A DNA stretch of 64,000 bases from Flaccisagitta enflata. Its lineage: Eukaryota. The stretch lies in assembly GCA_965153355.1 (NCBI GenBank), contig OZ231126.1:16926001-16990000 (forward strand). Reading direction: 5' to 3'. Positions within the stretch are counted from its first letter, which is position 1. Each line of letters starts with the position of its first letter. A program made the translations under genes and the position numbers. This document shows positions 3,289 through 61,728 of the stretch, piece after piece. Under the pieces are notes generated by a model, which saw nothing but the letters and a program-made list of their open reading frames with translations, was not told where the DNA came from and did not search any database.

Positions 3289-3379
<91 letters not shown>

Positions 3380-5955: not shown

Positions 5956-8017
5956 CAGTCAGTGGACAAACCGGTATAGGTATAAATCTCTATGGGTTGT
6001 GATGATTCTTAGAGAAAGATCATTTCAAATGTAAGGTTAATCACTAAGTTGAAAAAGCTTTCTTGACTTAGGAATTAACTAAGATCAGAGACATTTCTAC
6101 AGAGAGGCCATGCAAAATGATGAAAAATCATGTTTTTCAAAAATTTATGATGACCAATATATTCAGACATGAAATTTTGTGTAGATTCCAAATCTAAAGG
6201 TCCCACTAAGCATATGAGCAGTCATGGTATGCTGGAACAGCTCGTCAACAGCATCATTGAAGGATCTTAATAAATCATGTAAAAACTATATGCAGCAGAA
6301 GTTATTTATTTTCAGATAAGTTAGTTTCACAGCTATAAATGTGATAAGTCGAAAAACAAAGATAGGAATCAAGGTGGGCTGGAGCTGCTCGTCAACTGCA
6401 TCACTGAAGGATCCCCTCCACAAGAAACTATGCAAAATTATGAAAAATCATGTATTTTAAAAAATCATTATGACCAATGTATTCAGACACGAAATTTTGT
6501 GTAGATTATAGATCTGAAGGCGTTATTAGGCATATGAGCACTCAAGGTATGCTGGAACGGCTCGTCAACAGCATCATTGAAGGCCTTTGCAAAAAATCAT
6601 GTAAGACAATATGTAGCAGAGGTTATTTATTTCAGTATTTAAGTAACATTCACTGTTATAAGCGTAATAAGAGGAAAAAGATTTGAATCAGGGTGGGCTG
6701 GAGCTGCTCGTCAATTGCATCACTAAAGGATATATCCACAATTAAATAGCAAGTGACGCAGGGTCTACATATTAATGCAAACGGGTGGGCAGAGGCATAC
6801 AAACCCCATCCACACCCGTACTCCCACTCCCACACACATTGAAAAACTCAAACAGTGTCTAAAGCACTTGTTTTTCCACTTTTCGATTCAATCACTACAG
6901 ACGGACCAACAGACTGACTAACCAACAGACAAAGCCTCTTATAGAGTTGCATGTCCGCAACTAAAAAGAGAAACAAAATTTTGAATGAGGATGCTTTGAA
7001 GCTGCTTGTCAACTGCATCGCTAAATGATCCCCTCCTCGACCTCTATGTTCCCAACTTCCCAGTGCAAGAACATTTTCTTGCTGTAAAATCTTTGAAATT
7101 TAACAGAGATTCTGAAAATTTTTAGAAACTCTGTATCAAATCAAGAAAACTGAGCATTGAATTAACGGCTGCTGGAACTGTTTGTCAACTGCATCATCAA
7201 ATAAATAAAAAATGATGCAAATTCCATGTACAATATACATTGAATATTTGGTGTGACCCCTTTGCGCATCAACAACTGCCTTCATTTGCCTTGGGATGCT
7301 TTTGTAGAGAAACTTTAGGTAGAATGGCGCGATCTTTCTCTACACTTTGAGTGTGATCATTTTCAGTTCTGTTTCAGATATTGCTTGCTTTTTGATCTGT
7401 AGAATTTCAAAGAGCTAAAATTGCGCTTTTATCAACTAAAGAAATCTAGCAAGCACCACTCATGGTATGAATAACAAAAAAAAATCAGGAATGATACTAA
7501 TGTCAATTGAACAAGGCCAAGTAGGCCAATACATGTGGATCGTCGAACGAATGCGTTACCTGACCAACCGACCGACAGACCAACCGACAGACACAGCCAG
7601 TTACAGAGGTGCTTTGTCCCACCTAAAAATTACATGTATGCTACTGGTTTGGCAGTGAAAACAACGAGAAACTTGATGCATTTTTTTCTGCATTTTTCAA
7701 CCTAAGGAGCAATCTTGTATCGCATGTCAATTATAAACGCCTCAAGATAATTGAATGCGGTTTGCGGCATTCAATTGGAAATTTGCTTTAGTTTCTGAAT
7801 CTCACAGATCTTTTATGAATTGAATTACTAGAAGTAGAGATATTGCTTGATAAGTGAGGTGACAAACATATGATCTAGATAGTATTGTTGCGGATTGATG
7901 AGCGGGGGCGATCAAATCCCACCCACACCCCAATCCCCACTCGAACCACCCACACACACATGGGCATATTTGGAGGGGTAGCCATGGTGGCCCCTAACTA
8001 TAAGGCACAATCAGAGG

Positions 8018-12633: not shown

Positions 12634-13083
12634 CAGGGGCCTAAAGAGGAATTTTGGGCCCCTATACGATCAAATAATCCCCCCCCCTACTCTCAACGCA
12701 ACCGCCAACACGAATAAGGGCACATAGTTGATATACAGTTTTTTACAGTTTACTTTTCAGTCTCTATACATTCAATCTGGAGAAGAAAATCCAAACAAGT
12801 GTTGAACTAAGCTCTGTAACAAAAATAGAAAAAACAACGCCGGATACACGGCTACCAAAGTCGCGTGCGGGTAGGCAGGCAGGGGCCATATTTGAGGTCA
12901 CAAGACCATTTAGGCAGGAGCAGTGAGGTCAAAGAAATAAAATCATAAAAAAAGTAAAATGTAGACCAACCGACCCTTTTCTTTCCTCTTCATTTCTATG
13001 ACAATTGAGGGGGCCCTCCAGGTCCCCCTGAGGCCCGGGCCCCTATAATTTGTATAGGGTGTAAAGGCCTCTAGAGGCCCCTG
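12634..13083. mobile_element. hAT-type MITE with a nested short repeat
   Basis: TIR CAGGGGCCT...AGGCCCCTG; 8-bp TSD agtagaga (12626-12633, 13084-13091). Confidence 0.8.
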
Positions 13084-14966: not shown

Positions 14967-16093
14967 AGGGGGAGTGTGGCAAGGGTGTGCGCCCCTGCCG
15001 ACTCGTCCGGAACAATATTGTAACCCCGGCTTTCTTGTTTCCTTTTCTTTTCCCTGCGTGTGATTTATCTTCCGCATAATATCGAAATGTCTTCACTGTT
15101 TGTCCTTCCCGTTTTTTCTCTTTTTCTACTACCTTACTGAAAAAAAAACACGTCATCTTTAATAATTGCTGCTTCTTGACAAATAGAGCTATTGACCCCA
15201 GATTTGTCGCAGTTTTAACTAATCTTTAAATTGGAACCAATCCACTAAAGGCCATGGACTGCGCTAGATGGCTCATTGGGTCAAAATCCTTCATCTCTGC
15301 AATATGGCTAAAACTAAGTAGAATGGTCATAGTGGCATTTTAGCATACATCACCAGTCCATTTGACAGGTTTTATGGCGATTTAGAGTGAAAAAGAGTGA
15401 TCTTAATGGACATTACAATGGAAAATGCTGAGTTTCAAGAAAAATCAATGATTTTTTTGGATTTTCTGTTGAGGATACAAAAAGCTCATGATATCTTCAA
15501 TATTGGATTGGATTCCTTCATTTATGTTTACATGTCTAGAAAAATTAAAAAAAACATAATTTTTTACATTTTAGCGCTTATGAATTAGCCTACAATAACT
15601 ACATTTTTGACCTAATTTGCATGCTTTATTAACCAATGAATAAAAAAAATCGCACAAGGACGCACAATGAGCGACCTATGCCAAAATGTAGCTTAAGGGG
15701 TCCTGAATCCAGAATGCTATGGCTCAAGCCGTACAAAGACGTACAAATTGCGATTTTCTGGTCCTAAACTGGACAGGTAATAATGTAAAAAAAAGGAAAA
15801 AACAGTTTTTGGCCCAATTATCTTGTTTTAAATCAAACCGTTATGAATTGTGTTGCTCTTATTCTTCTCGGAACTTCCCTCATATTTCCCCAGTATCTTC
15901 TTCTTCTTCTTCTTCTTCTTCTTCTTCTTCTTCTTCTTCTTCTTCTTCTTCTTCTTCTTCTTCTTCTTTTTCATCTTCATCTTCATCTTCTTCTTCTTCT
16001 TCTTCTTCTTCTTCTTCTTCTTCTTCTTCTCCTTCTTCTTCTTCTTCTCAGTTGACTTTATAAAGAATGAATTCATTTCTGCAACCTTCACTC

Positions 16094-16125
<32 letters not shown>

Positions 16126-16270
16126 CTTCTTCTTCTTCTTCTTCTTCTTCTTCTTCTTCTTCTTCTTCTTCTTCTTCTTCTTCTTCTTCTTCTTCTTTTT
16201 CATCCTCTTCTTCTTTTTCTTCTTCTTGGTGTAATGATACCAATGACAATCTCTCCTCATTCTTTTTATG

Positions 16271-16340
<70 letters not shown>

Positions 16341-16485
16341 TCCTTCATTCCTTCATTCCTTCTTTCTTTCTCTCTTCTTTCTTTTTTCCGTTCTTCCTTT
16401 CTTCCATTCTTTTTTTCCTCATTCTTTTATCTGCTTTTTTTTCCCTCTTTCTTTCTTACTTTCTTTCTTTCTTTCTTTCCTTCTG

Positions 16486-16520
<35 letters not shown>

Positions 16521-17055
16521 CTCTTTCTTTCTCTCTCTTTCTTTCTTTTTTTCTTCCTTTCTTTCTTTCTTCCTTTATTTCTTTCTTTCTCTCTTTCTTT
16601 CTTTTTTTCTTTTTTTCTTCCTTTCTTTCTTTCTTCCTTTCTTGTTTCTTTCATACTTTCTTGCTTTTTTTCTCTACTCCGAAGTTTTCTATCATTTTTC
16701 CCTCCCTCTCCCAACATATTGTTTTGCGCTACCGCTTTTTAAAAATATGAACTTTTTATTTAGGGGGTGTACTCATACTGTATTGGCTGAGATATATTTA
16801 GCTGAGATATATTTAGCTGAGATGTACTTAGCTGAGATATACTTGGCTGTGTGATGTACTTAGTAGTATGGATTGTCTCTAGAAGCATCAGCAAACATCT
16901 GTAAGATGCCTCAGTTTACATGTAAAGCTGACCCTACCCACCTGCATCACTGCCCCTGCCCATCGCTAAGTGAAGAGTTTCCATCATCGGCTTTCATATT
17001 TTTTTAATGACATCAGATTATTACAGCTAGATGAAAGCACGTGATTCTCTCTCCT

Positions 17056-17298
<243 letters not shown>

Positions 17299-17407
17299 AT
17301 TCAGGTACATGCAGGTACACGCAGGTACACGCAGATTCGCACAAACAAGGAAACCTAGGTGCATGCACATTTCTTTTTCTCCCGCAACCAAACCGAAATG
17401 ATTCCTG

Positions 17408-17440
<33 letters not shown>

Positions 17441-17453
17441 GTCTCTCTCTGTC

Positions 17454-17654
<201 letters not shown>

Positions 17655-18007
17655 TTCTGCACTGTGGGCTTGATTCTAAATCATGATTAAGTACTGTGAA
17701 TCAAAAATTTTATAAAACATCAATATGTTAATCTCATACACTAATTCAAATTAAAAGTCTAAAGAAGTTGGAAGTATACAAATACTGAGGCTAAATCATT
17801 TTCATTTTATATTAAATGAAAATAAAGCGAGCAAAATGAGCTGAATGAGCGGAAAAATGAGTTTTCATAATTTGATAAGGGAGAAATTCCTTCTTTAAAG
17901 AAAAAGAATGTATGCATTAAATCAGCTAAAGACAATTTACTTTTTAAATTTAAGATGACTTAGCTGTGCTTTTTACTTCTTTTTCTTGCAATCTATTTGC
18001 ACTGTCC

Positions 18008-18625
18008 GCCAGAACACAGAATGAGTTGACTTGAAATGATCGTGTACAACTCTGATAGGTTTTGAGTCCTTGTGGTGTGTATAATACAAATCTGAAAAGA
18101 ACTAAATCATTTTTGGGGCGCTTTTTGAAATATATACAAAAATAATACAAATTTCGTACATTTTTCATCATAGCTCTTTGTGATGATTTATTCTAGTATT
18201 TTTGACCGCAGATTTTGACTCAGTGGGTGGCTTGCGGTTCGTTTGATATGTCACACTATATACTTTTAAAAAAGAAGTAAAAGCTTATTTTTTTATAAAA
18301 TCATTAAAAATAAATATATTTTATAGCAATATGATGAAAAAATTTACTTTTTATTTCTTTTTCAAAACTATATAGTGTGACATCTTAAATGATTCGCAAA
18401 GCACTCGCTGAATCCAAATCTGCAGTCAAAGACACCAGAAAACATCACCACAAAGAATTATGATAAAAAATGTACTAAATTTACACTGTTTTTGCATATA
18501 TTTCAAAAACCGCCCCAAAAGTGATTTAGTTTCCCTTAGATTTATATTGTACACACTGCTATGACCCAAAAACTATCAAAATGAGATACGATCATTCTAC
18601 CTCAACTCATTCCGTGTTTTGGCTG
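18008..18625. repeat. ~600-bp imperfect palindrome (foldback MITE-like)
   Basis: Arms pair around ~18320, e.g. gtcacactatata/tatatagtgtgac, ttttggggcg/cgccccaaaa, gaatgagttga/tcaactcattc. Confidence 0.65.
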
Positions 18626-19144
18626 GTAGTGTTTGCTTTGTATTCAAAGCTCTTAAGGCATTAAATCCAATAAAAGGGGTCGATATTGGGTATGAATAGC
18701 CTAAACACATATAAGAATATACAAACAAATGTTTTTCACTCCTTAAGTATCTTTAAGAATAATGACATTAAAAATATGTAATGATAATCCTCAATGAGCC
18801 ACCTGGAGCACGTTTCAGCCCACAGTGCAATCCGGTAATTGTAGCTTTACTCATATAAGAGTTGCACTCTTCCAAAGTTGATACTTCTATGCGTAGCCAT
18901 TATAAACCGTTGTCCAAACTTAATGTCACACAATGCCCAATCCTGGTGAGTGGATACGTAGTCTGGCTTTGGTTCTCTTTGTCCCACTAGTGTTCATTCA
19001 TTAATTCATTCATTTGTTAACTCATTCATTCATTCATTCATTCATTCATTTGAATGTACCTGTAAGGCATCCAGAGGATAGCGAATGTTATGACTACAAT
19101 AACCAGCATTTTTACCACCTGAAAACATGATGGAGAAGGTGAAG

Positions 19145-19269
<125 letters not shown>

Positions 19270-20559
19270 GGAAAGATTTTGGTGGTATTAGTTAAGCAGG
19301 TTAGACCAGTACAAAGCGGGCCTCATACAGTATTACTATCTAGAACATAAGTATATCGACAGTATGGGGATTGGTTAATTTAGCAGTATAGGAATCATAG
19401 AAAAACCGCCAAAACATGTCGGATACTTAATATTACGTCTTTGGGTTTCAATACATATTTGTATGTGGATTTTCTAAGCACTTAAACACAAATGCTTTTT
19501 ATAAATGCATGATAACTATCCTGCTTAAAATTTTATTCAAAAAATTCCTTAGCACATGCCATGTTCTCCCATTTGCTTCTGTTGCAATCCCAATGATTCA
19601 GAGAGGTTGAAATAAACCAAGATAATGTAGCAAAGGTGTTGGGCGCTGTAATTAGGACCAAAAATAGGGTGGAAAAAACCTCCAATCTATCTGAAAGGAG
19701 ACTTAATAACTTGTGAAGAAACTAGATGCATTTTTTTTAGCCATTTTCTTATTAAAGTATCAATCTTGTTTTGCCTGTCAATTCTAAAAGCCTTGAGCTA
19801 AAAGGATGCGGTTTGCGGCATTTGGTCAGAAATTCAAAATAGTTTCAGAATCTCACTGATTTTTATATAAATTCTTTATTCTTAACAGAGTTATTGCTTA
19901 AAATGCCTGTCGATATACATATGTTCTAGATAGTACTGTTTGAATGCAGAACGTCACACTTCAGTTTTTTTGATCTGATCATCCAAGGCTTTGAGAGAAT
20001 ATAATTTCCACACCAAGCAAATAGAAATAAAACTGACAGTTACCCATTTGTTACCATTTATCACATGTGACGGGAAGCTCTGTTGCTGAACTTAAATAAA
20101 GTTCAACTTGTAAGTTTGCGGTTTCAATTTGGGTAAGGGCGTCACGTTTTGCAGACAGATCATGTGCATAATCTGCATTTGCGTTTTTTAATGCTGAAGT
20201 TTTTTTATTGTTTTTTAAAGTTTCATAGGAAAAACCTTGATTTTTTTTCATGTTTGGGTTTTCCCATCATTTATATATATATATATACATCTATGTGTTA
20301 AACAATGACAGATTTGGACCTGACATTCCAAAATGCTGGATATGATCTATTGGCCCATTTTTTGCCTTTTCTACCGCCTATCATTGTTTTCTTTCACAAT
20401 TTTTGTTCATCTTTTTTGCATCAGATCAGGAAAAATTAAAATCATTCCATTTGTGTGTCCTTGTTTATGATCGTGTCCGTGTTTGTGTTCATATTTCTTT
20501 TTTTTTAATGTTTTTCATATGTCGATCACATTCTGAATTGCAAGCAGTTTTTTCTTTAT

Positions 20560-20765
20560 AGCTCCTGCCCAACCGTCCGTGACGAGATAGCCGTGTATCC
20601 AGCCTTGTTAGTGGCGGACACGCGACTCTACACCTTGCCGTGTCGATCGTAAGGTCGGTAGGTCGGTCGGTATGTCCGACACATTTTTGTATTCCTTGCG
20701 GTTTTTGCATTATTGCTCCTGCCCAACCGTCCGCGACTGGATTGCTGTGTATCCGGCCTTGTTTT
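20560..20765. mobile_element. HINE/DINE-1-like short dispersed repeat (representative copy)
   Basis: Shared ends (t)agtcgcggacacgcgactct (hairpin) and gtgtatccggccttgt, internal (GGTC/GTCC)n, set in T tracts. Other copies at ~4330-4405, 6900-6965, 12005-12125, 12840 and in viral introns at 32815-32962, 35390-35585, 35938-36085, 55085-55205, 60128-60256, 60950-60982. Confidence 0.6.
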
Positions 20766-21264
20766 TTTTCTCTATAAATCACACATGAGCAAGTGACAGG
20801 TTTGACTAGGAGTATGGAAATAAAAAGATTAAAAGAAAATATGATCGCCTGCATGAGCAATTGACAATTTTTCTCTCTCATTTGGGTGATTTTATCGAAT
20901 TTCGATATAAATTTTAGAAAAACAGCTTAACTTTTTTCCAAGGAAGTACCTACTAGCTAGTGGTCGTATAGACAGGAAGGGGCGTGGAAAAGGGGAAGGT
21001 GTTTTGGATGGAGATGTGGAGGATGCAGTCGGATTTTGGAAGGATTGAGGGGGGCGGGGGATAGTAGTTACATATATAGGGTTTAACTATGTTTTTTTTG
21101 GATGGGTTTCTGATCCTTGTAACAAGCTAGATTAGATAAAGGAAAGGCGCTAGTGATACATTATTTTTACATATATTTGTAACAAGCTATACTGCGCTTT
21201 GACACTAAGTTCATCTGTTTCTGTTTGGGTAGAGCTAGAAGAAAATTGTTTTAGTCTGACTTGA

Positions 21265-30536: not shown

Positions 30537-32672
30537 TTAATCAACAAAAGCTTTTAAATGTAAAGGAAGTGAAAGACCTCCTGTAGGAGAGTAGAGAGAA
30601 CTAGAAAATAGACGTTTTGATGAAAAAGAACTTAAAATTCCTTTAGTAATAGAGTAACAATAAATATTTCCTCTAAGTTTTTTTAGACTATATTGAACAA
30701 TTTTTCTGGGGGTTTTTTTTTTGATAGTTGCGTTTATAAAATCTTTTTTTGTAACCCCTGATTGTAAACGGCGCGCTATACCCTTAATTTTTTTTGTGAT
30801 AGTAATATTTTTATACCCTCCTAAGTAGTACTGTTTAACACTACTCGAGTAATACGAGAAGACTCCCCCCTCTCTTCCAAAATTCAATTTCTTTTCTTCC
30901 TTGAAAAGCCATCTTCTAGACTTCAAAAATTTACTTAAAAATACATGAGTTGCTTCTAATTTTTTATTATTTTTTATGATTGTTTTATAAAGATCAGAAT
31001 CAGTACTAATACAGCTCCAATCTAAAATTCCAGAAAAAGCTTGAAAGTAAGAGGTTGCTAAATGTTTTACAAGATGTGAATCATAAGGGAATTCTTCTTT
31101 ATTCTCTGCATTGTACTGCTTGATTTGACCGTGTTCCAAAGAAGAAAGAGGTCGTTGAATTGATAGGCAAAGGCTATCCTGAAGAAAAGATAATGAATTA
31201 ATTTTTTTCAATTTTAATGAATTAATTAATTAATAAATTAATCAATTAATTAATTAATTACTCACAGTGTCTGAAAATAGCAGACGACAATTATATCCTC
31301 TCAAAGCCAAACGAGAACAGATTGTGAAGTAGGCTCTGTATAGATATAATTTACTGAAAAAAAAAATTTTAATTAATAAAATATCTAATTATGACGGTTC
31401 ACAAATTGAGCGTTTGCCACTGGTGATTATGATTTGGATACGACGGTTTACAAGTTGTGTTATCTGCCACTGGTAATCGAGATCGAGGTGAGAGCGAGAA
31501 AAGTGGGGGAGGGTTAAATGTGGGAAAATCCCGGACTTAACAAACCCGGCAAGAGAGAGAAAGTTTGAAAACAAAAGACGGGAATTAGGAGAGATCGAGA
31601 GAGATCGCGTATTTAACAAATTCGGTCAGAGAGAAAAAACAAAAGACGGGCCTTGATTTAGATTCCAGGGTATATATATATATGATATATACATGAAAGC
31701 ATACACCTCACACCTTCATACTGCATACCTCATAGCGTAAACACGTGATGAGATGCTGAATTGGTTTTTAGATTCCAAGGTTTGCCGGTCAAAGATAAGT
31801 ATATTTGCATTTTCATTGATATGCAAAAAGGAGAAAAATGATTCTTTTTTGGTGTGTCTAAGAAACATTTTTTTGGAAAGAGTCAAACGCGTGCACAGGA
31901 AACTGCTTTCATTCATATGCATTCTACCTGTAAGAATGATGAAAGGGTGTTGTTTTAAGCAATTGTTCAAGCAGTGATCGTTTCAATAGGGCTCAACACA
32001 TTTTTACAAATTTTTGTCGCTCGGTCGGTAGGTCGTCGGTCGGTCGGTTGGTTAGTCGGTCGGTCGGTCGGTCGGTCGGTTGGTCGGTCGGTCGGTCGGT
32101 TACGCACCCGGAAGACAATTTGAAAGTGACTTGATAATTTTAAGGAGTAGAGGAGATGGATTGAAATTTTTTTGGTTTTGCAGTTTTGTGATCCATTTGT
32201 TGAATATTCTAGCCGAATCACATTTTACAATTTTAAAAATATTGGTGATTGTTAGATCATGAATACAGGTTTGGTATAAAATACATTCAGCCCAAGTAGA
32301 GACTGTGTTTTTTTTCTTTAAAAAACTCATTAATCTACTAGAATTTTCTCGACAGGGGTTTAGATTCGCAGCTTTTGCCCATTGAACTTGTTCTTTCGTC
32401 ATTTCTTGGGCGGTTGCATTGTGCTTGAAAGGTAGAGCTGAAAAATCCATATTTAAAAAAGATGTCTTTGCTTGTTCACGATAAGATAATTCAACTTCAC
32501 AAAAATAAATTATGTTATTTTCAAAAGCTTCATGATAGAAGAAATCAAGGTCTCCCTGGGTCAGAGCTTGAGCTACCATCTCAAATTCTGTTGGTCTTCT
32601 TGTAGATGTACACAGAGTGTAAGATACGCTCATTAAACCTGATAAACAGGACGGATATAAGCTGCGAGAGAG

Positions 32673-32722
<50 letters not shown>

Positions 32723-33509
32723 TGCTTTAGCTTCTAGTAGCAGTACTAGTCGTGAGCGTGCGTCTTTACACCTTGTTGTGTCGGTCTGTCGATCCATCCG
32801 CTCGAAATATTTTTAGTTGCGGACACGCAACTCTATAAGAGTCTTTGTCGGTCGGTCCGTTGGTCGGGCTGTCGGGGAGTGCGAGTCAAAAAGTGTGAAA
32901 ACACGCATTTCCGCCCCTAGCTACCCGTCCGCAACTGGTAGGGCCGTGTATCCAGCCTTGTTACAAGCAAACTAACCTGTTGGCATCTGCATAGATAATT
33001 TGGCGTTGCTCCATGTTTTTAAGGCTGTCTTTCACATCAAGGCCCGTAAAAAATGCATAATTTGAAGAGCTTACGCTATAACCTCCAAGCAGGGATTTAG
33101 CATAGATTTGACTTATCTCAGAATTTAAAAGATGTAATTTTATTGGTTTGTTGGCGTTCTTTGGATCTCGCCCGTTTAATAGATAGCTATTGAGCGAAAA
33201 GCTCGCTGCTGAGATGTAGTAAGAAGGCCAAAGATTGCATATTTTATAAAGATATCCATAGTAGAAAATTAATACATCCATTAGCACAGCGCTGTCCAGA
33301 GCCGAATAAATATAAAAAAGTAAATGATAGTTTGGTATTTTAAAAAATTCCCATAATTTCAAAAAAAAATTATATTCATTTGGGGTCGCTCCCGCGCCTT
33401 TCAATTTTGAATGGAAATGGTCTAGTGGAGGGGGTGTTGTTCTTTGTAAGTATGCAAAGGAGTCCACAAATTCAAAAGGCTGAGAAAAAAGAGAGAATGT
33501 GGGTTGTTT

Positions 33510-33594
<85 letters not shown>

Positions 33595-34138
33595 TGTTTA
33601 TGAGAGAGAGAAAGAGCAAGTCTACCTGGATACATTTGCCTTGCATGATTAATTCAAAGTGGGCTTCAGTGTATTTTAGTTTGCTACAAATTAAATCATG
33701 ACTTCTTGGAAAGATATCCTTGAGAGGCTTTCCACTGTTGAGTTTGGCTTGTTGCATGTCCTTTATAAGCCCGTCCAGACTGTCAAATTATGTGAATACA
33801 AGAGATACAAGAATACAAGAGATTACATTGCAGATTGCAGATTGCAGATTACATTGCAGATTGTTGCAGGGGTTTTTACTTCGTTTGTTTAGAGACTGTC
33901 TTACCTTGCGCTAAGCATAAGATAAGAATCCAAGAACTTATATTGTCGGCTGTAAGGACACCGCGGTATAGGAAGGTTCTTTTTTTTCAATTGTTGTTTT
34001 TCAGCAAAAGAAAGAGAATGATAGCAGCAGGTTGCTAACGAAACGCAACTAAATTTGAGGGTGACGGACGTAATCGTGTTTTTGTCGCTTTTGAAGAGAA
34101 CTTTTGGTCGCTCTGTTTAAATAGAGAGAGAGATAGAG

Positions 34139-34189
<51 letters not shown>

Positions 34190-34553
34190 CAGAACAAAGG
34201 TGAAAGAACGACACCTACCGTAAAGAAGTGGAAGGGTGATTATTTCGCCGTTTTTTCCAATTTGATTAAATTTTTTCATTCCCACTCTTGTTATTATGTC
34301 CAGGATAATTTGCGAATCGTATAAGGCAAAATTGTGCAGTAAAATTGGGATCGTGCTGTTATCTTGGGTCAAATTGACGTTGCATACCTGTGTGGAAGTT
34401 GTACCGTTGAGGTTGAGGTTCAATTGATGAAGAACAGAGATCTGTTCGAAAATTTTCGGTTATTAAATTTTCATGTTGATTCCACCATGTCTAATTCATC
34501 AATTGTTGCATACCTGGCATATATTCATCAAAGACCCGTCGGCGAAATGGGCT

Positions 34554-34596
<43 letters not shown>

Positions 34597-35616
34597 TGAG
34601 CGAGTGAGGAGCGAGTGAGCGAGTGAGGAGCGAGCGAGCGAGTGAGGAGCGAGCGAACGAGTGAGTGAGTGAGAGATGTTGTTACCTAGGCCCTTTATGA
34701 CGTCTAAGTGATTGTGGTGGCGGGCGTGGGCATATTTGTGTGTCGGCCCACGGAAAAAAGCCCCACACGTAAAACAATTTGTAGCTGTTGCGAAGGCGAT
34801 CCTATCTTGTATGTTGACATCTTTCTTAAGATTAGGAATTCCAGGATCTCTAGGTTTAACCTTTTTTTCTATAAATTCGTTTATATGATATAATTTACTT
34901 CTCAAGCCGGTCAAAAAGTGCAGATAGAAATCTTCTAATGAATCGCTGGAATCGTTGAGAATTTTACATTCAACCTCACTAAGGTGTGCTGGGAGTTGGG
35001 CTTGCCATAAGCTATAGGGAGAACTGAGAATCAAACTATATGCCATAGGAATCTGTTTGTATTTTGCCGATTTTGGAGGTTTTGCAGTTGCTAAGTCGAT
35101 ACTCTCATGGTCTAGAGGGACGTTACGACATTCAAAGTCCATTGATATCATGAAGATTGGGGGGAAAAGGGACGATAGTCTAGACCTGTCAAATTTTAGA
35201 TATTTCTTCTTAAAAGTTTTGCTTTTTTTACAAAAGTATTTATTATTGTAGAGTATTGTGTTTTTCACAAAGCGTCTGCCAATGGCATTGGGAGTTCCAC
35301 ACTCTGTAGCTATCGCATGTTGAATCGTGATTCTCGAAAATAGGTTCTTTCCAGTGGGTAAATATTTTGCTGGAATGAATGAAAACAAACAAGGCCGGAT
35401 ACACGGCTACCCCAGTCACGCGTCTCGGAGTGGGCAGGAGCTATATTTAGAGTCTCATCATGGTGAGCAGGAACAGTGAGGCCAAAGACCCCCAAAAAAA
35501 GTAGAATATGACAGCCGGACGGACAGCGGACCTTGGATGGGCGGGCAGGCCGCCAGCGGGTTGTAGAGATTGCGTGGCAAACTAAAAAAAGCGGATTACA
35601 ATCTCTCTCTCTCCTC

Positions 35617-35680
<64 letters not shown>

Positions 35681-37152
35681 CTCTCTCTCTCACCTTCTGC
35701 ATATTTGACAATTTCCATACAGGTGAGTGTTGTGATTTTTATCTTTGAATGATTGAATAAGACGAAATAAGTTGATAATAAGTAGAGTATGCTGATATTG
35801 ATGAAGCGGTTTATTGAGCTTTTTTTTTTTATTCTTTAATGGGGCTCTGATGTCCTCTGAATCTCGTAATAGGTCTATGTTGTAATGCATACGAGGATAA
35901 AATTTTATTTTTGATATTATTATTATAATTTGTATTTTTAGTCGCGGACACGCGATTCTACATCTTGCCGTGTCGGTCGGTAGGTCGGTCCGTCGGTCCG
36001 TCCGGCCGTCACATTGAATTCTGAGCAGTTTTCGCATTGCTGCTCCTGCCCGACCGTCTGCGACTGGCCTGTCGTGTATCCGGAGCAGTAAAAAGGGTTC
36101 CCAGGAATAACTATTTGAAATAATAACTATAAAAATAACTATTTGAAAAAAAAGTTTGAAATCAAATTTTATCGTAGTTTGCACTGTGACCTATGGGGAA
36201 AAAATCTTTTTTATTCCATTTAGAACTAAGTTTGATAGGAAGAAGTGAGAAGCTACGAAGGGAGTCGTTATATTGACAGGAATAGATATTTAAAGCTATT
36301 CCTTTGTACTTTTTAAGGAAAGTATAATGCTTCTGGAAAATTTTGAAGGGTAAATCTTCGATGATATGGAATTGGTCAAGGCTCACGCCTTGATGAAGAA
36401 TGTCAATGTGTCCTAGGTCGATGCTTTGAAGTATTTTTTTGATATGTTTATTACGATTTAGGAGGAATTTCCCTCCATGCGCGACGTGTTCAAATTTAAG
36501 TATGATATTGACTAACACGCAAGTGTTAGTGAAACCGATAGGCGTTCTTGTTCCAGGGTCAATGACGTTTCGTCGAAAAACACTTCTGAGATTTTCATGG
36601 AATTTTCGTTTTTTTTCCTTAGATGTGCTTCCCAAGCCGATAACCCCATGTAGAGGTCTCCGTATATGTACAATATTTCCACTTAAAATCTTTGAGAAAG
36701 TCCAGCCTTAAACATGAAAAAAAAATTTTTACTACTACAGTCAATTCCTGCTTTAGTAGATCTATTAAAGCAAGTTTTTTCATTGTTGATTGATCATTTA
36801 TACCTGATTCCACTCTAAGTTCAATTGTTTCACAGTCTATCATTAAGGATCTTGAAAAGCCGTTTAGCAGTTCGTCAACGATAAGAAGGAGATTTTCTTG
36901 ATTTAAATTAGTAGGGGTAATCCAGTATTCATTTCTATAGCTTGAGATTATTGACATTTTGTTTTCTCTTTCTAAGATTTTTTCAAACTGAACCTCGAAG
37001 CTTAAAAATACTATATATTGATATCCCAATTCAAATAAACTCATAAGATATCTCTTCATGTATATGAAAAAAATGTAGGCCTCTTGCTCGGTCAAAAACG
37101 ATATATCGTCATTTTCTGAAACCCGTTCAAAGACTCGTTTTTGTGACGTTCC

Positions 37153-37187
<35 letters not shown>

Positions 37188-37415
37188 GAAATATTGCAAT
37201 TCTTTTCAGTCGAGGACGCACGAAGGATCTATTACTGTATCCCACCCAACCGACGGTGACTGTCCTGCTGCATATCCGGCCTTGCTCACTTTGAATGAAT
37301 ACATATCATGCATACCTCCGTAAAACGAGTCCATCGTGTATTCCTCTATTCCGAGACTGTTTTCATCCAGCCCTTCAAATAGGTCTCCAAAGACGTCAAT
37401 ATTTTCGTCCATCAT
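30537..37415 (-). CDS. polB: Protein-primed family B DNA polymerase (Maverick/Polinton type), 14 exons, ~1450 aa
   Basis: Exons: 37415-37316, 37151-36804, 36706-36191, 35874-35694, ~35332-34686 (acceptor uncertain), 34551-34514, 34387-34219, 34112-33905, 33779-33626, 33479-32977, 32661-32108, 31927-31729, 31353-31266, 31178-30537. Spliced motifs: ESG|WTF, ExoI MDFEC, CFTC..HARHHNH..CQ|VCN Zn insert, ExoII HNFALYDSQ, FLDSY..SA|SL, GKCIQ|PFEFVDS, ExoIII YSALDSAVL, PolA YADAN|SLYP, PolB KSLSNCLP|G, PolC FSDT|DSL. Confidence 0.93.
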
Positions 37416-37699: not shown

Positions 37700-37965
37700 T
37701 CAAACACGTGGAAACACATGGAGCATCATCATAATCATTATCATCATCCTCAGAAATTGGATTTTTTGGAGGGTTATCATCATCATCATTGTCATCATCA
37801 TTATTGTCATCATCATCATTGTCATCATCATCATTGTCATCATCATCATTGTCATCATCATCATTATCATCATCACCATCATCATCATCATCATCACCAT
37901 CATCATCATCACCATCATCATCATCACTGTTGTCATTATCATCATCATAATCATCATTTCATCAA

Positions 37966-38000
<35 letters not shown>

Positions 38001-38013
38001 ACATCATTATCAC

Positions 38014-38055
<42 letters not shown>

Positions 38056-38976
38056 TGTCATCATCATCATCATCATCATCACCATCATCACCATCATCGC
38101 CATCATCATCATCATCATCATTGTTATCATTGTTGTTATCATCATCATCATCAGCATTGTTATCATCACTGTTGCTATTGTCATTGCTACTGTTATTATC
38201 ATTTTCTTCGTTGTGATCATTTTCTTCATTATCGTTGCTTCCTCCACTGCCGGTGTTGTCGTTCTCGCTGTCAGGTTCTTTGTTTTCCGGATTGTCATTG
38301 CACTCATTGACTTCCATGACCCTCCTCTTTTTTGGATTTGTTAAGTGGTTGGGCTTTTTTTTTATTTCGTGTTTCTTCCTTTCTATTTTTTCATTCTTCT
38401 TTACTTTTTTCATTCTGTTAGTTTTCTCCAGATGGGTGGGAGATTTTTTTGTTATCTGCTTTCCTGTCTTTTTTTTCTCGCTCTTTTGCTTGTTTTGTAT
38501 TGTGACAGAATCTTGTTGTTTTAATCTCCTTTTACCATATTTAGTTGGCCAAACTATATTTTTAGCGATATTGTTGATTAAACCGTTAAAGCTAGTTTTG
38601 TTCTGGTTAGGATTTAGGCTCTCAATAGATTTTGAATCGCTCGGCTTTACTGAAAGGGCTTCTACATTTGAGTGGCTCTTATCATCTGTATTCATTGTTT
38701 TGTTTACGTATTTTCTACATGCGGCTATTAGTTGTTCGCGTTCTTTCTCCTGTCTTTTTTCTTTTAAATAACTAGTCTCGTAGATATTTTTCATTAGAGG
38801 AGTCCCGAAGTACGCACTTCCACTCGTTTGTTTAGCAAGACAAAAATTCTCACTCCAGCCACCCCTAGTAATTCTTAGGAGACTCCTTTAACTAACTCGA
38901 TCCAATATTCTTTCACTTGTCATATCTACGATTTGTTGAAAAAGATGAACACAAAACTACAAGTTTCCATAGAGAA

Positions 38977-39042
<66 letters not shown>

Positions 39043-40722
39043 GGTTAGGAATACTTAAACAGTTAAGCTTTTGACGATGTTTTAAAAAAGATGTTTTAAA
39101 GAGTAAACTTACCTTTTCTGACGAGCGTTATTAAAGATGACGGCGCACATCGAGCAGCTGAGGGAGGGGAGAGGGGTAGGACAAGGGAACATGGAGTTAT
39201 CGCGATTATTGTTTAGGGAACATGACTGACGGACAATCAGGAATGTGCACTTACCGAACTAGCAGAAAGTTATCTAGCATTTTAGATTCTTCAATTGAAG
39301 ATCGTTCGACGGAATTAAGTTTGAGAGACTTGTATGTACGCAAAAATATATCGTCTCCATGATAAACTATGAAAAAAAAAGTCTCGGTGAGTATATGGTT
39401 ATTTCCATGTACTGAAATATGAGATGTGTTGTTATGAAATTGTGTTACCTGTAAAATGCTGATTTGCATGTTGTAAACAACATGTTTTTGAATTGTAAAG
39501 ATCGCCATTTCTAAGGCATAGGACGCAGGTTAAGATAAAAGTATGACTTCCATGAGTCAAAGCGTGGAGTCCTACGAATGTCAGTAGAAAAAACAATTTT
39601 ACTTACCATTTAGACAAGTGTAGCAGAATAGATAATTCAAGGGGGTAAAATAGATGTAAAATGTGCTTACCATGATGATTTTGCCAATGTTTTCTGATTT
39701 CTTCGAAGGTCCATAAAGGCATGACTCTTTGAATATTAATATTTGAAACAGCCTTATTAACAAATTTGTATTTGACTTTCTCAACAGGTTTTACGTCGTT
39801 TGCTGCAGCCGGACAGAGAAAGCAGTTGCTAATAACAGAAGCGCTCAGAAGCTCTTGATCTATGCTGTTAGAATTAAAGATTTTTTTTAAGGAAGCTACT
39901 TCTTTTTTTTCAAATCTTTTGCTCATTCTCAACAATTTCCTATTGGAATAATTTAAAAGACTTTCTTTTCTTTTTGGGCTGTTTTTCAAGAAAAACTCTA
40001 TGTTTCTTAACACGTTTCCTCGGATTTTTTCCAACTGAGCTTTAGAAGCACTTGATAAGCTGTTAAAACTCTCATGAGGTTTAGATTTTTTGTAATCTAA
40101 GAGATCTTCTTTGTAGCGGTTTAGGTAATCGTCGGTCTGTAAGTTTTCACAACTTGTAGCTAACGCCGCTAGGAATTTTACATCAAGATCTATGCGGTTG
40201 TTTTCGTCGTCGTAGTTTTGTAAAAATTGATCCAGAAGAGTCGAGTCAGGAAACGCCACAGCCTGAGCCAACTGGTCCTTGCTCACTCTTGTTAATGCTT
40301 CCTTAACCGGTAACACACCGTCTTGGGGGAAAAGGCTTAGTATTAGATTTAGATTTTCATTTTCTTTAGGAAAAATTTCTTTTAATGTGCTTACGATAAG
40401 ATCTTTCACATCCTGATTCTCGACATTTGTTTGTTGAATGTTATCTTCAAATTGTTTTATAAATGATGATTGCTTTACTATTTCTAAACCTATTTGACTT
40501 TCAAACTCGGCTTCATTTTGTACTGTTGGAGTTATGCTAAGTAAGTCGGGTTGTTGCTTGGTACCCATTGTCAACTGATCTAATTTACTTAGGAAATCTC
40601 GCAAATCTGGATTTAAGATATTTGATTCGGCAAAGCTAGTGTAGTCTATGTGAGAGCTTTTTATTTTAAGAGAGGCCGGTAGTGTTGTTGCTGCAGTAGA
40701 ATTACTGCAAACGGCCATATGA
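37700..40722 (-). CDS. Multi-exon zinc-finger-like protein with Lys-rich and Asp/Asn-rich tail
   Basis: Phase-compatible exons ~40722-39671, 39571-39449, 39411-39255, 39157-39113, probably joining ORF 38794-37700; spliced motifs CFLC..HWQNHH, CVLC..CCLQHANQHFTVH, RCSMC..F; 5' end and last junction uncertain. Confidence 0.55.
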
Positions 40723-40733
40723 TCTGCAAATGA

Positions 40734-40810
<77 letters not shown>

Positions 40811-40975
40811 GAGAGAGAGAGAGTTTAGAATCGAATAGACCCTACCTTCTGCCTTTATCTTTTAGGCCCGGGAAATTACATCACCTACCTCAATAATTCT
40901 TAATGAAGACGTGTTTTGCACCGCAGCTCCTTGTTTGACGCTTATTGGAAAATCGGAAATAAAAAAAAGAATCCT

Positions 40976-41113
<138 letters not shown>

Positions 41114-41136
41114 AGAGAGAGAGAACAGAGAGAGAG

Positions 41137-41399
<263 letters not shown>

Positions 41400-42477
41400 A
41401 GAGAATTTAAAGAGCGTTGTAGGAAGAAGACCGTTTTCAAACGTCGTGACGATGCGCTGTGAGGTTGATGTTGTGAGGTAAGCTTTCAATAAGACTCTCG
41501 CAATACTCACACTGATTGAAATATTTTCCAGTATGAGTATCGCGAGAGGCACACTTGGGCTATTTTTTTTTTTTTGATGATGAACGCTTTTTTCTTTTCT
41601 TTTTTTCTTTCTTTTTTCTTTTTTTCAGACATCAGTCGGCGTTTTCCTTGGCTGTGGCACCGCGTTTCTATACACGTTATTAAAAGACCGTCCGCGAGTG
41701 GTGTTAACGTTTATGCAGCCAAAGCCCTTTTGACTGTTGTATAACATTTGTTTTGTAATGATTGTTTTATAACACGATTTTATAATAAGTTTTATAACAA
41801 GACGCTTTAAAAGAGGCGGTCGTCAAGTGATGATGTCGTAATACAGCTCCGTGAGTTTTTTTTTCAGCGTCCATATTTTTTCTGTTACGGATACGCGCCT
41901 CTACACTCCATCGCATTGGTCGATCGGTCGGTCGGTTGCTCCGTCCGTGTCCAATATTCCTGCCCGGATCTACGGATACACGTCTCTACACTCCATCACA
42001 TCGGTCGGTCGGTCGGTCGGTCGGTTGGTTTTGTCCAGCCGTCCAACATGTTCCTGCCCGGGATGTTTTTTGGCTTGTAGCAGTTGTTTTGTTTTTTCTT
42101 TTCTTTTTTCTTTTTTTCTTGGTCGTTTGAGAGATGCGGTACATCACGTGTTATGGGCAGAAAATGGCGCACAAAATTATTTTGATTAAGCTGTTGAGCT
42201 ATACATATATTTTATGTGCCGTCTTCCACCCAAACTCGCGAGTAAAAACGCGAATTCGTTACGATGATGCGGCCGCGCGGGAGTGTCGGGATTACCTTAG
42301 TTTTCGAGCTTGGATATTGACGTAAATGGTGATTATGATTGAATGATTTAGCGCTACTGGGCAGTATTACAAAACGTCTAGGATACACTGCCATACTATC
42401 CAGTAACCCGAGATCAAAAAATCGTTATTTGAACCGAAAGAAAGAAAAAGACAAGGTGATCAAAGTGGCGATGATGG

Positions 42478-47204: not shown

Positions 47205-48761
47205 ATCTCCCGCGCTTTCATTTATCGTTTCCTACCTTTGTTGCGGTCCTTTAAGCATCGCAGGGACGACGTCCTGAGCCGTCAGCGTAACTTCCGAATG
47301 AGACACCCCGTTGTTGCGCACGATTCGTTTTTCGTTGCGAATGAGGGTTTCTATTCGGCCACCGTCGTCGACACCGTTGCACGTTCCTGTTGTGAGGTGA
47401 GAGCGTGAAAGATACATGGGTAGTTCGGTATCGATGGGAACGTCGAAGAGCACTGCCCAAGGCCCAGCTTCTCTTAATCCCCACCACCGATTGTTTCCCA
47501 TTTTATCCATGGGAGCGTGAGGAGGTGGATCTGAAATGATCAAAACATAACGAGATCCTCAATTTTTATGTTTTCTATATTTCACGAGCCTTCCTTTCAT
47601 TTAAGAGCATCAAGAGCGAAGTCTTGATGCGGAAGGCTTTCAAATATTAATACATCATATCGACGAAGTGCACAGAAAAAGAAAATCCATTTGCATGTAA
47701 TACTTGTAAAGTGTCCTATTTGCTCGAAAATAACAAATTTAACATGTATTGAATTTAGGGCTTAACTAAATTATCACTATATCTAAAAGCCGAGCATATA
47801 AAACGAAAAAATTTGAATAATCATTTAAAAGAAATAAGAACATTTTCCATTAGTTTAAGTAGCTTTTTTTCATTTTCAGTTTAAACCTCATCTCCTTTAA
47901 AGGGTTGACGGGAAAACAGAAACTACAACATTTAAATGAGGAGCACAGTCTCACTTTGATGTTTTATTTCAAGCTGAAGTCGAAAAGAACTTTTCCCCCT
48001 TTAAAACAAAAAAAAACAGTCATACATCATCGAGTGAAAAAAAAAGAATAAACAAGAAAAAGTTTTAAGAGAAAAATACAGAAAAAAGGGAATTCGGCAA
48101 AATTGGAAAAATAGAGCTCTGTATTTGAGGATCACTTGATCATTGGAGGGTAGGAGCAGTGTGCTAAAGACAACAAAAAAAAAAGAAAAGGTGTGACGGA
48201 TGGATGGACCGATCGCAAAAGCAGGGTGTAGAGAAAAGATATCATTGTAAATACAACTTTAAATGACTTTAAACAACTTTAAACAACTTTAAATGACTTT
48301 AAACAACTTTAAATGACTTTTTTTAAAAAAGACCTAAAATAACTGAAATGTCTACTTTTGACCTATTTGACTTAAGTGGCTTAGAGCGAGCCAGAATGAC
48401 TTAGAATATGACTTAGAATGACTTAGAATGACTTAGAGTGACTTGGAATGGTTTAGAAGGCCTAGAAAATAACTTAAAGTATAGTAAAAAAGTAAAGTGT
48501 AACGGACGGACGGACGGACGGACGGACGGGTCGACATTAACCAACAACGGCAATACAAAAAACCGGGTTGTAGAGTCGCGTGAACGCGACAAAAAAAAAA
48601 AACCTTCAGATACCTTGTAAAAGAGATGGAAACGACGGTGGCTTGAGATCCTCATTGCTCGGTGGCGCCGATGGAGATCCGCTTTTCTTCGCTTTGATCC
48701 ATCCGGTTGATGGTTCGATGTCGACATCGTTGAAACCCAAGTCCAAGTCGTTTGACGACAT
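43689..48761 (-). CDS. Spliced Gln/Pro/Ser-rich protein with C-terminal coiled coil, 762 aa
   Basis: Exons 48761-48614, 47530-47236, 46437-46196, 45292-43689 join in phase at GT-AG sites; polyQ tracts; coiled coil LANEQAMELA...VRNI. Confidence 0.75.
46352..46609. repeat. 129-bp perfect tandem duplication spanning a splice acceptor
   Basis: 46352-46480 matches 46481-46609. Confidence 0.9.
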
Positions 48762-53113: not shown

Positions 53114-57469
<4,356 letters not shown>

Positions 57470-58182: not shown

Positions 58183-58423
58183 ACCGTCATACAGGAGCAT
58201 CAAGGCACGTGCTGCTTGACTTTACACCTCACTGCTCCTGTCCAAATACGACCTCAAATAGGGGTCTTACCTACCTGTACGCGATTGGGGAGGTAGCCGT
58301 GTATCCGGCCTTGTTTTTTTTTTTGTTTTTTTTTCTTTCTCTTTTCTTATGCTTATTCCTTTTATTTGATCCTACTAGGGCTCTAATTCGCCATGCTTTT
58401 TTCAATCTATTCCTTGATTAACT

Positions 58424-59693: not shown

Positions 59694-60596
59694 ATGGAAG
59701 AAATCACCACAAGAAAAAACTCTCTTAAAGACCCAGTAAAACATTTGATTAAAAAATATTATACAAGTGATGACATACACCTCAACCCCAACACTTCTAA
59801 TATATTAAGCGAAATAAAAAAAGATAGGAATCTTGAAGGTTTAACCGCTGAAGACATAATCTCCTTCAAAAACAGCTTATATCACATTTCGGTAAGCGAG
59901 AAAAAGTAAAGTTATCAGTTTCGGACTTTTGCACAGAATACTGATTGTATCTACCTTTCCCCCTTCTTTTCTCCCCAGAGATCGCAAGAATATAAGATTT
60001 TAAAAGGAAAAAATCGGTATACAACGAGACAATATGTCAGTTTCGGTCCAGGTGAAATGAAAAAATGAGCTTAAAAAATGATTTTTTGATTTTTTTTGAA
60101 TTTTTTTCTGATTTTCTTTCCTATTTTTAGTCGCGGACACGCGACTCTACACCTTAAAAAATGATTTTTTGATTTTTTTGAATTTTTTGAGCTTAAAAAA
60201 TGATTTTTTTGATTTTTTTGAATTTTTTTTCTGGATTGCCGTGTATCCGGCCTTGTTTTCTCTCTTCCCCCAAGGTCAAATTTTAGCAATGGATTTGTCG
60301 TACATCCGGAAAGTGCGTCGTCAGAAACGCACAGCGATTAGCGCTCAAACGAAACCGACCATAATATTGGTTCTTTTGGATATATTTAGTCGCTTCTGCC
60401 AGTTGAGGATCTTACCTGACCAACGAGCGATAACAGTTCAGCAGGCTATAAGAGAAGCTCTTTCTTTTTTCCTGCCAGTAACAAGGAAATCCAACAATTA
60501 TTCACACTTTCTGACAGACCGAGGTATGTTTTCCCCCCTCCCCCCACTTCCCTCCATATATCTATCTATCTGTCTCGCTCACCTATCTATCTCTCT

Positions 60597-60674: not shown

Positions 60675-61728
60675 TTTCTCTCTTTCTCTCTCTCTTTTCA
60701 TCCTCTTTTGTTTTTTATGGTCAGGTAGCGAATTCAAAAGTGACCTGTGCAAGAACACCGGAATTCCAAATCTATTTCATGTCAGAACGTCAAATATCAA
60801 CAAAATTTCATTAGTTGAAAGACATATAAGGCTAGTAACAAACCCGTCCGTCCGTCTGTCACCGCACTTTGTTAATGGGAAAGGTTTCGGCCTTACTGCT
60901 CCAGCCTAAACGCTCCACTGGTCTTTACGGTTCCCTACCCCTCACCCGCACGCGACTGAGGTAGCCGTGTATCCAGCCTTGTTTTTTTTTCACTTCAGGA
61001 AATGCAAAAAAGTTTTTTTTCGAATTTTGATACGACATCCAAGTTTGCAATACGACAAAGTTGTCCATCTAACAGAGGTCGTCCTTAATTCTACCCCCAG
61101 CCGAGCCATCGCTTATTACACACCTCATAGAGTTCAATTTGACAACTATATCTCATCCAAAGTGCTTAGACAACAATTGCAGTTATACAGAAAAAATCAG
61201 GAAGAAGCTAAAAATGTCTTTGAAAGATTAGACAATGATAAAACTTTTAAAATATATGATAAGGTCCGCTTAAAACTAACAAAGCAAATTATTAGAAAAG
61301 AAAGCGGGCTTTTTAATCCCTTAGTGTCTAAAGAAGTCTTTGAGATTTCAGCTGTCAATTCTGATAGATATCCATGGTCTTACCGTTTGAAAGAACTACC
61401 TGGACATAGACTCTTTTATGCTTGGAATCTAGTAAAAGTCGATGAAAGAATACTAAAAGAAGCGGACAAACAAAAGCATTTGGTCTTACAGAATGATGAA
61501 ACTACATCAATTGATGTAATAGACATTAAAAAAAGGGAATCAAACATGTTACGAAATAAAAAAATATTACCCTCTAAGTCTGAAATCATGTTTGAAATCT
61601 TACACAAAGGAGAAAGACAGTTCGTAACAAAAGAGACATTACTTTTATTCAAAAAAATGTTTGATGATGATGTGCTTAAATATTCGATGAAATTTGATTT
61701 ACCTGAATTTCAACAATACCGTGTGTAA
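59694..61728 (+). CDS. int: Retroviral-like (rve) integrase of Maverick type, 5 exons, 451 aa
   Basis: Exons 59694-59891, 59979-60051, 60275-60523, 60725-60830, 60999-61728. Catalytic D (ILAMDL), LDIFSRF, D (FLTDR|GSEF), E (LVERHI|RK), NSTPSRAIAYYTP; C-terminal SH3-like FKIYDKVRL...EVFEI..YRLKE..FY..NLVKV. Confidence 0.92.

Follow-up and report, generated by a model that had tools for sequence, protein, structure and literature searches.

How new spliceosomal introns originate is an old question, and the answer now given, creation by specialized transposons called Introners, rests mostly on genome-wide statistics. In 2009, Li et al. reportedly described intron gains in Daphnia that carry short flanking direct repeats and explained them by a model of staggered double-strand break repair. 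In the Rogers model, and in the 2011 work of Hellsten et al., an intron is said to be created by tandem duplication of an exon segment that contains AGGT. The Introners of Aureococcus and Micromonas described in 2016 by Huff, Zilberman and Roy are said to carry one splice site (or both) and to be flanked by duplications of 8 nt or shorter. A survey places Introners in 175 of 3,325 genomes, with over-representation in aquatic organisms, gives their duplications as typically 3 to 9 bp, and has some of them taking both splice sites from the duplication or the insertion site, the Introners of Florenciella co-opting both from the insertion site (PMC9860276). In Polarella, according to a preprint, both splice sites of ILE class 14 derive from a 4-nt AGGH duplication (bioRxiv 10.1101/2020.10.14.339549). 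Moreover, 1,093 Introner families derived from many transposon types, non-LTR retroposons among them, are given in another report (PMC12130899).

Here we describe a locus within a 64,000-nt stretch of DNA (the window) at which an exon of a polB-like gene is interrupted by 126 nt that begin with GTATGC, end with CACAG, and are bounded by two exact copies of the 12-mer CAGGTATGCAAC. There is good support for an origin in which repetitive DNA was inserted and a target bearing AG|GT was duplicated, and the locus is probably a candidate of the Introner kind. That the insertion of a repeat, with its AG|GT target duplication, created a candidate spliceable intron by an Introner-type route is the reading we favor, and we consider it somewhat probable. 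The coordinates of all features are collected in Table 1.

Table 1. Features of the candidate intron, its host gene, and the second dispersed repeat, in window coordinates.
Feature	Position	Strand	Basis or remarks
Modeled part of the polB-like host gene	31729..37415	-	12 exons, 11 GT-AG introns, 3,617 nt, 1,205 codons without a stop; ATG at 37415
38-nt exon coding (A)HFADGSLMNICQ	34514..34551	-	Reading frame, relatives' alignment
Upstream copy of the 12-nt direct repeat CAGGTATGCAAC	34505..34516	-	CAG forms the final codon (Q) of the 38-nt exon; GTATGCAAC is the would-be 5' splice site
Candidate intron, 126 nt, GT..AG, phase 0	34388..34513	-	In-frame stop if retained
Inserted 114-nt interior, member of a high-copy dispersed repeat family	34391..34504	-	Family similarity about 34391/34394 to 34500/34506; X1 depth
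Insert segment delimited by an 11-nt inverted repeat	34421..34505	-	CAATTGATGAA at 34505-34495, TTCATCAATTG at 34431-34421; pairing of the two closes the predicted fold
Downstream copy of the 12-nt direct repeat CAGGTATGCAAC	34379..34390	-	CAG is the would-be 3' splice site; GTATGCAAC codes V-C-N of conserved C-Q-V-C-N
Exon coding VCNVNL...HNFALYDSQ (ExoII-like motif)	34219..34387	-	Reading frame, relatives' alignment
Second dispersed repeat, pieces in introns	37315-37152, 36190-35875, 35693-35333, 32976-32662, 32107-31928		Window search
Second dispersed repeat, other places (approximate)	20526-20770, 12829-12935, 60122-60258, 60944-60989, 58268-58321, 55073-55206		Window search
Second dispersed repeat, other places, continued (approximate)	6869-6967, 4366-4412, 48498-48602, 42001-42043, 53241-53267		Window search

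The initial annotation had noted a 12-bp repeat at the donor and the acceptor of the candidate intron, and we confirm both its coordinates and its description, the match being exact. The two copies are spaced 126 nt apart on the minus strand, the upstream junction reading ...ATATGCCAG|GTATGCAACAATTG... and the downstream junction ...CCACACAG|GTATGCAACGTCAAT..., and each copy is in register with its junction. At the donor the repeat covers 3 nt of exon and 9 nt of intron, and at the acceptor it covers 3 nt of intron and 9 nt of exon. When the 64-kb window was searched for CAGGTATGCAAC with at most one mismatch, these two sites were the only ones found, and two matches were reached in 0 of 100 dinucleotide shuffles. 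Because 210 isolated exact 12-mers recur within 30 to 500 nt of each other in the window, mostly inside tandem arrays, a nearby repeat is by itself unexceptional.

Boundary matches at other introns were far shorter, as the initial annotation had proposed to check. The in-register match was 1 to 3 nt in each of eight other introns of the polB-like gene (2 nt, by eye, for intron 34685-34552) and, by eye, 5 and 2 nt in two further ones, such that no boundary repeat longer than 5 nt was found among the 10 other introns (computed; some by eye). As a control, pseudo-introns of the form CAG|GT...CAG|G and 60 to 400 nt in length were collected from both strands of the window (n = 44). Their match lengths were 4 nt (22 cases), 5 nt (14), 6 nt (5), 7 nt (2), and 12 nt, the last being the candidate intron itself. 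The repeat is thus above chance by the shuffles and by the pseudo-introns alike, and a boundary 12-mer in register by chance is unlikely. We conclude that the exceptional feature is the register of the 12-mer with both splice junctions and not the repeat per se.

The splice signals of the candidate resemble those of its neighbors. The donor form AG|GTATGCA is recurrent in the polB-like gene, being found also at introns 37315 and 31728, and the acceptors of most other introns end in CAG. Since GTATGCA is a recurrent donor, the upstream copy of the 12-mer could on its own be consensus sequence, but the downstream copy encodes conserved residues. Pyrimidines make up 48% of the candidate intron versus 80 to 85% of three neighboring introns. 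AGGT was contained in 58 of the 3,301 12-nt windows of the modeled exons (1.8%), so a spliceable outcome would be rare for a random insertion.

Removal of 34513-34388 rejoins the codons C-Q|V-C-N within ...SLMNIC-Q|V-CNVNL... and so re-creates a conserved C-x-x-C-N motif. The 12-exon model reads through 1,205 codons without a stop once the 126 nt are taken out; if they are kept, a stop first appears at codon 614. Relatives have the site unbroken, as LCQTCNV in P0008 (VLTLCQTCNVAT), LCSACNI in P0009 (IVTLCSACNINT), LCSNCNL in P0010 (VITLCSNCNLAT), and AVLCQGCNLSL in P0015. Local alignments with a score of at least 45 spanned the junction in 40 of 177 proteins and were gapless within 3 residues of it in 33 of those 40; several of these alignments are weak, and it is the close relatives that give clear ones. 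The relatives at 38 to 40% identity have uninterrupted ORFs over the site, on contigs that could derive from RNA. No interruption at the position of the 126-nt intron was found among the relatives aligned, the long ones of which lie on possibly RNA-derived contigs of 3.6 to 13.7 kb. ORF searches with the exon after the intron, for gene copies lacking or bearing it, returned no candidate (74 to 238 and 30 to 98 aa), which is no evidence either way. As the motif is unbroken in relatives and retention brings a stop, the 126 nt are an insertion relative to the ancestral coding sequence. We conclude that the gene, as modeled, is readable only with exact removal of the 126 nt.

The minus-strand ORFs around the site are parts of a single gene, the model of which was built from tblastn blocks of three long relatives together with GT and AG sites. 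These relatives aligned to the window in colinear minus-strand blocks from 37146 to 31722, and the coding sequence appears to continue downstream to about 30537, in an ORF with a TDSD motif. In a profile-free search, one 167-aa exon had 234 relatives at an E value of ≤0.001. Full-length relatives (P0007 to P0009) are 1,118 to 1,131 aa long at 38 to 40% identity, and short ORFs that are near identical or 68% identical were found in addition. The motifs MDFEC, HNFALYD, DANS|LYPS (YADANS-LYPS), KSLSNCLPG, and STDSD, read by eye, are presumably those of a protein-primed family B polymerase. Pfam searches with nine ORFs of the window gave 0 matches at an E value of ≤0.01, and relative P0008 matched DNA_pol_B_2 (PF03175) with 24.6 bits (E value of 1.4e-5), under the cutoff of 25.8. 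Pfam support for the polB-like designation is weak. P0007 to P0010 and P0015, with their clusters, make up a polB-like family of about 1,120 aa on metagenome-assembly contigs of 3.6 to 13.7 kb, with a long N-terminal region and a C-x2-C...H...C finger without Pfam assignment.

An open frame requires a GAG acceptor at 35333 for intron 35693-35333, as the stronger CAG at 35370 shifts the frame (64 stops). Use of the CAG at 35370 gives CQICRR-SKIFTH..., like relative P0007, and then the frame breaks. Either the acceptor in the minus-strand stretch 35333-35370 is an unusual one or this copy is frameshifted. A possible frameshift within the zinc-finger region was set aside as unproven, the GAG acceptor at 35333 keeping the whole frame open.

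The host gene may be present in several copies. Three short ORFs (P0001, P0003, and P0175) are 98% identical to window exons (32979-33479 and 34690-35406) and then pass into unrelated sequence where the window exon continues, which suggests further gene copies with other junctions or insertions. If the host gene is multicopy, a disruptive insertion could persist in it. A 71%-identical ORF (P0176) reads ...HHNHLDRIPGLG and then unrelated sequence, as read-through into an intron at the position of 34685 would give; it is one of a lineage of relatives (P0002, P0176, and P0177) at 66 to 71% identity. In P0007 and P0008, the protein ends a few residues downstream of the motif at which intron 32107 lies. 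At least some of the other introns of the polB-like gene seem to be older.

The surroundings of the candidate are rich in simple repeats. The introns of the polB-like gene, at least 11 in number, are short (97 to 361 nt) and of the GT-AG type, and several are largely microsatellite on the sense strand. (CT)n tracts were found in introns 37315-37152, 34685-34552, 34218-34113, 33625-33480, and 32976-32662 and a (CCGA)n tract in intron 32107-31928, and the pyrimidine share is 0.80 to 0.85 in three microsatellite-rich introns. A second dispersed repeat, made up of the motif GGCCGGATACACGG and a (GTCG)n tract, is scattered in pieces over five other introns of the gene and ten or more other places in the window, and by eye it ends 14 to 35 nt from the splice sites in three introns. 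Two long minus-strand ORFs, one with an extreme D/N-rich tract, lie upstream of the polB-like gene (37700-38887 and 39603-40841), and no Pfam match was found for either at an E value of ≤0.01. Very long (CT)n/(GA)n and (TTTC)n tracts at 16200-17700 and 40860-41500 produce 98%-complementary "inverted repeats." The inverted repeats 17046-17296 and 41138-41388 were rejected as the ends of an element; both translate as ERER/LSLS microsatellite.

Four public runs were aligned on the microsatellite-free stretch 34188-34553: a DNA run labeled as the source organism (X1), a marine metagenome (X2), an RNA library (X7), and a polyA RNA run of the source organism (X23). In X1, summed contig depth in the flanks was 418 over 34188-34356 and 313 to 659 over 34513-34553, and in the interior it was 6,401 to 27,057 over 34383-34460 and 1,517 to 3,316 over 34461-34512. 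Part of the very high depth at 34396-34421 may stem from a (GTTGAG)-like low-complexity run, but 34422-34460, which is not of low complexity, still reaches 15,000 to 19,000. Of the X1 contigs, 76 aligned, 31 of them partly, and 24 were at least 99% alike; the loose ends at 34393/34394 and 34500/34505 are sequences unlike the locus. A variant with 27 to 28 different letters in place of 34415-34473 was present in both X1 and X2, and X2 gave four partial contigs of the family and 0 contigs of the flanking exons. An interior depth far above that of the flanks, together with copies in different flanks, indicates that the interior comes from a high-copy dispersed repeat family.

The edges of the repeat adjoin both 12-mers to within 0 to 3 nt. 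Consistent with such an edge, an X7 contig terminates at 34420, exactly 30 nt beyond 34390. An assembly from 31-letter words breaks at that point on entering a repeat, which places the edge at 34391, against the 12-mer. blastn detected no second copy of the intron within the 64-kb window. An exact 21-nt interior pattern had 0 matches in metagenome_contigs and 0 in viral_contigs, and a 22-nt core pattern had 0 matches in metagenome_contigs. We conclude that the interior belongs to a multicopy family, as the interior of an Introner does, with copy number read from contig depth and not from counted genomic copies.

The predicted fold of the insert is closed by an 11-nt inverted repeat (minimum free energy of -24.3 kcal/mol; z of -2.26), the second arm of which lies 30 nt inside the insert's other end and so does not form a terminal inverted repeat. 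Terminal inverted repeats were not found at the extreme ends, as TGTGGAAG... and ...CATCAATT are not inverted copies. Other family copies in X1 and X2 run past 34393 with related sequence (..AGTA(G) before GGAAG, by eye), and six X1 contigs agree at 0.63 over the 30 nt past that position; the copy here looks shorter at one end than they are. By eye, the X2 copy differs from this one in the last 4 to 8 nt at both ends and is bounded by its own 8-nt direct repeat, CTGCATTG (loose ends, by eye; estimated chance of about 1%), which suggests that the family makes duplications on insertion.

Extension past 34393 in other copies and the differing termini make the insert unlike a clean cut-and-paste element. 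Terminal inverted repeats and a fixed duplication length, which define MITEs, are not seen, as the ends are not inverted and the duplication is 12 nt here versus apparently 8 nt in the X2 copy. By the traits of SINEs and non-LTR elements, duplication length may vary (12 and 8 nt) and a tail is absent; an Rfam search of 34150-34750 gave no match inside 34388-34513 at E values of up to 10, its weak matches lying outside the intron. Copies that vary in duplication length and in how far they reach at one end would be in keeping with retroposition, but a tail is missing and the gradient in depth is the reverse of the one expected. The X1 flank consensus loosely resembles, by eye, the other end of the element, and a satellite-like tandem arrangement of the family was dropped because this likeness is too weak to claim.

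The 126-nt candidate intron may be spliced from the RNA. Splicing is supported indirectly, by signals like those of the gene's other introns, by a frame that is open only on removal, and by the rarity of AGGT windows. The spliced joint 34514|34387 was absent from the four runs aligned (X1, X2, X7, and X23). The X7 contig (243 nt; depth of 8.48) follows the DNA colinearly from a point before 34188 up to 34420 and is unspliced both at the acceptor of the candidate intron and at the next donor, 34219|34218, in a kind of library in which DNA can be present. A colinear contig across two predicted splice sites could come from unspliced transcript, antisense RNA, or DNA carry-over. X23 gave one partly aligned read from a sample of about 6% of the run; neither X2 nor X23 covered the flanking exons, and nothing is concluded from that absence.

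A second form of the locus is hinted at in X1. The contig on the exon side has its end exactly at 34390 and the one from the 38-nt exon exactly at 34505, and a 58-nt contig (34477-34534; depth of 178.6) bridges the right junction. By arithmetic, the depth bins of 34513-34538 require a further, unlisted contig with a depth of about 168, ending at 34534 and sharing 34505-34534. An empty site is expected to give a form that matches the flank as far as the outer edge of each 12-mer and departs from there. The second form, possibly the empty site, would have roughly the same depth as the filled form, and the two could be alleles or different gene copies.

These observations can be assembled into a sequence of events. 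A copy of about 114 nt of a very abundant dispersed repeat would have entered an exon of the polB-like gene between the Q and V codons of C-Q-V-C-N, and the insertion would have duplicated the 12 bp of its target, CAGGTATGCAAC, or possibly 10 bp extended by two chance matches. The 12-mer is best read as a target-site duplication that arose at insertion. The duplicated target holds AG|GT and is close to the gene's donor form AG|GTATGCA, such that a 5' splice site could come from the upstream copy and a 3' splice site from the CAG in the downstream one. Excision of the insert plus one copy of the repeat, 126 nt in all, would give back the original mRNA. The route would be an Introner-type gain in which the element has no splice sites and both are recruited from the target-site duplication. 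For the insertion with AG|GT target duplication that the initial annotation had proposed here, the repeat interior, the uninterrupted ORFs of relatives over the site, the unrelated flanks of other copies, and the restored motif and 1,205-codon frame speak in its favor, and no spliced joint was seen. Its further claim, that the duplicated AG|GT supplies both splice sites and restores the coding sequence exactly, holds for the frame and the motif, whereas the X7 contig is unspliced at the acceptor.

The same insertion and target duplication might instead have left an unspliced, disruptive nested insertion in one copy of a multicopy mobile-element gene, with AG|GT present by coincidence. We take this possibility seriously while thinking it less probable than a candidate intron. 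It accords with the unspliced X7 contig over the acceptor and the missing joint in four runs; with the near-identical P0001, P0003, and P0175, whose different neighboring sequence suggests several gene copies; and with an X1 flank depth of 313 to 418 that may reflect many copies. Moreover, the copy may already be damaged, since its frame needs the weak GAG acceptor at 35333 and the CAG at 35370 breaks it. A coincidental AG|GT would, however, have had to fall in the 1.8% of 12-nt exon windows that contain AGGT, in a window that also matches the GTATGCA donor, and 1,205 codons open across 11 GT-AG introns would be compatible with a disabled gene only for a very recent insertion.

Two further explanations concern how the 12-mer arose. 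A staggered double-strand break with 12-nt overhangs could have been closed by fill-in and end joining with a repeat fragment captured as filler, in which case the interior would be a fragment and not a transposed unit. This copy does look cut short relative to others that run past 34393 (six X1 contigs; agreement of 0.63), its last 4 to 8 nt at both ends differ by eye from the X2 copy, and its ends are free of terminal inverted repeats; yet the 8-nt direct repeat of the X2 copy, CTGCATTG, suggests that the family duplicates its target on insertion, and variable truncation and duplication length fit retroposition just as well. We regard capture during break repair as rather unlikely. It is highly improbable that the intron is old and ordinary and that its boundary repeat arose by chance or by convergence on the splice consensus. 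CAG|GTATGCA is a recurrent donor in the gene, and consensus could thus account for 10 of the upstream copy's 12 nt, but the downstream copy codes for conserved V-C-N, and in-register matches do not exceed 5 nt in the 10 other introns or 7 nt in the 43 other pseudo-introns. The interior, a high-copy repeat with edges adjoining the 12-mers, likewise speaks against an old intron, and no relative aligned shows an interruption at the site.

At this single locus, each component of the Introner model is legible base by base: a duplicated AG|GT target, a foreign repeat interior, and a conserved motif restored on removal. Should both splicing and the empty allele be true, it would be a clean natural example that widens the range of duplication lengths and places intron gain in the polymerase gene of a mobile element. 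Should the insert be unspliced, it would be an ordinary nested repeat insertion. It is doubtful, and we propose it as speculation, that the repeat represents a previously undescribed Introner family of a marine eukaryote with an unusually long duplication of 10 to 12 nt and no splice signals of its own, which enters, or persists only in, targets that mimic the host's 5' splice site (AG|GTATGCA), and which is here present as coexisting filled and empty sites at about 1:1 inside the polymerase gene of another, self-replicating mobile element. Were that so, one mobile element would be seen directly giving spliceosomal introns to another.

Compared with known elements, the insert is like SINEs and 5'-truncated non-LTR retroposons in its long, length-variable duplication (12 nt, and apparently 8 nt in the X2 copy) and its variable extent at one end (by eye). 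It is unlike them in being without an A-rich or simple-repeat tail and without an RNA-family match inside the intron, and depth is higher at the would-be 5' end of the insert, opposite to the expectation from 5' truncation of non-LTR retroposons. As in the tandem-duplication model, donor and acceptor would come from two copies of one AG|GT, with exact restoration of the coding sequence. Here, however, the duplication spans only 12 nt and its copies are separated by 114 nt of foreign repeat, whereas in that model the intron is duplicated exon sequence. The exact short direct repeat at both intron ends and the possible presence/absence state are shared with the Daphnia gains, in the model of which the interior is unique filler, whereas here it is a copy of a high-copy repeat (possibly a captured fragment).

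In common with the Introners of Aureococcus and Micromonas, the locus has a nonautonomous repeat whose insertion with target duplication would create an intron, here a candidate one; both splice sites lie in the duplication here, whereas those Introners carry one or both on the element. The duplication of 12 nt (or 10) exceeds the 4 nt of Polarella class 14 and the 3 to 9 nt of Introners generally, as given in the survey (PMC9860276), and a family with a 12-nt duplication may already be described. Set against the Polarella type, the ends here have no terminal inverted repeat, the host is a polB-like gene that is itself possibly of a mobile element, and the splicing is putative. The likeness to Polarella class 14 and Florenciella lies in an element without splice sites, AG|GT within the duplicated target, a marine eukaryote host, and a multicopy interior. 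As in those systems, removal of the element plus one copy of the repeat would leave the mRNA unchanged.
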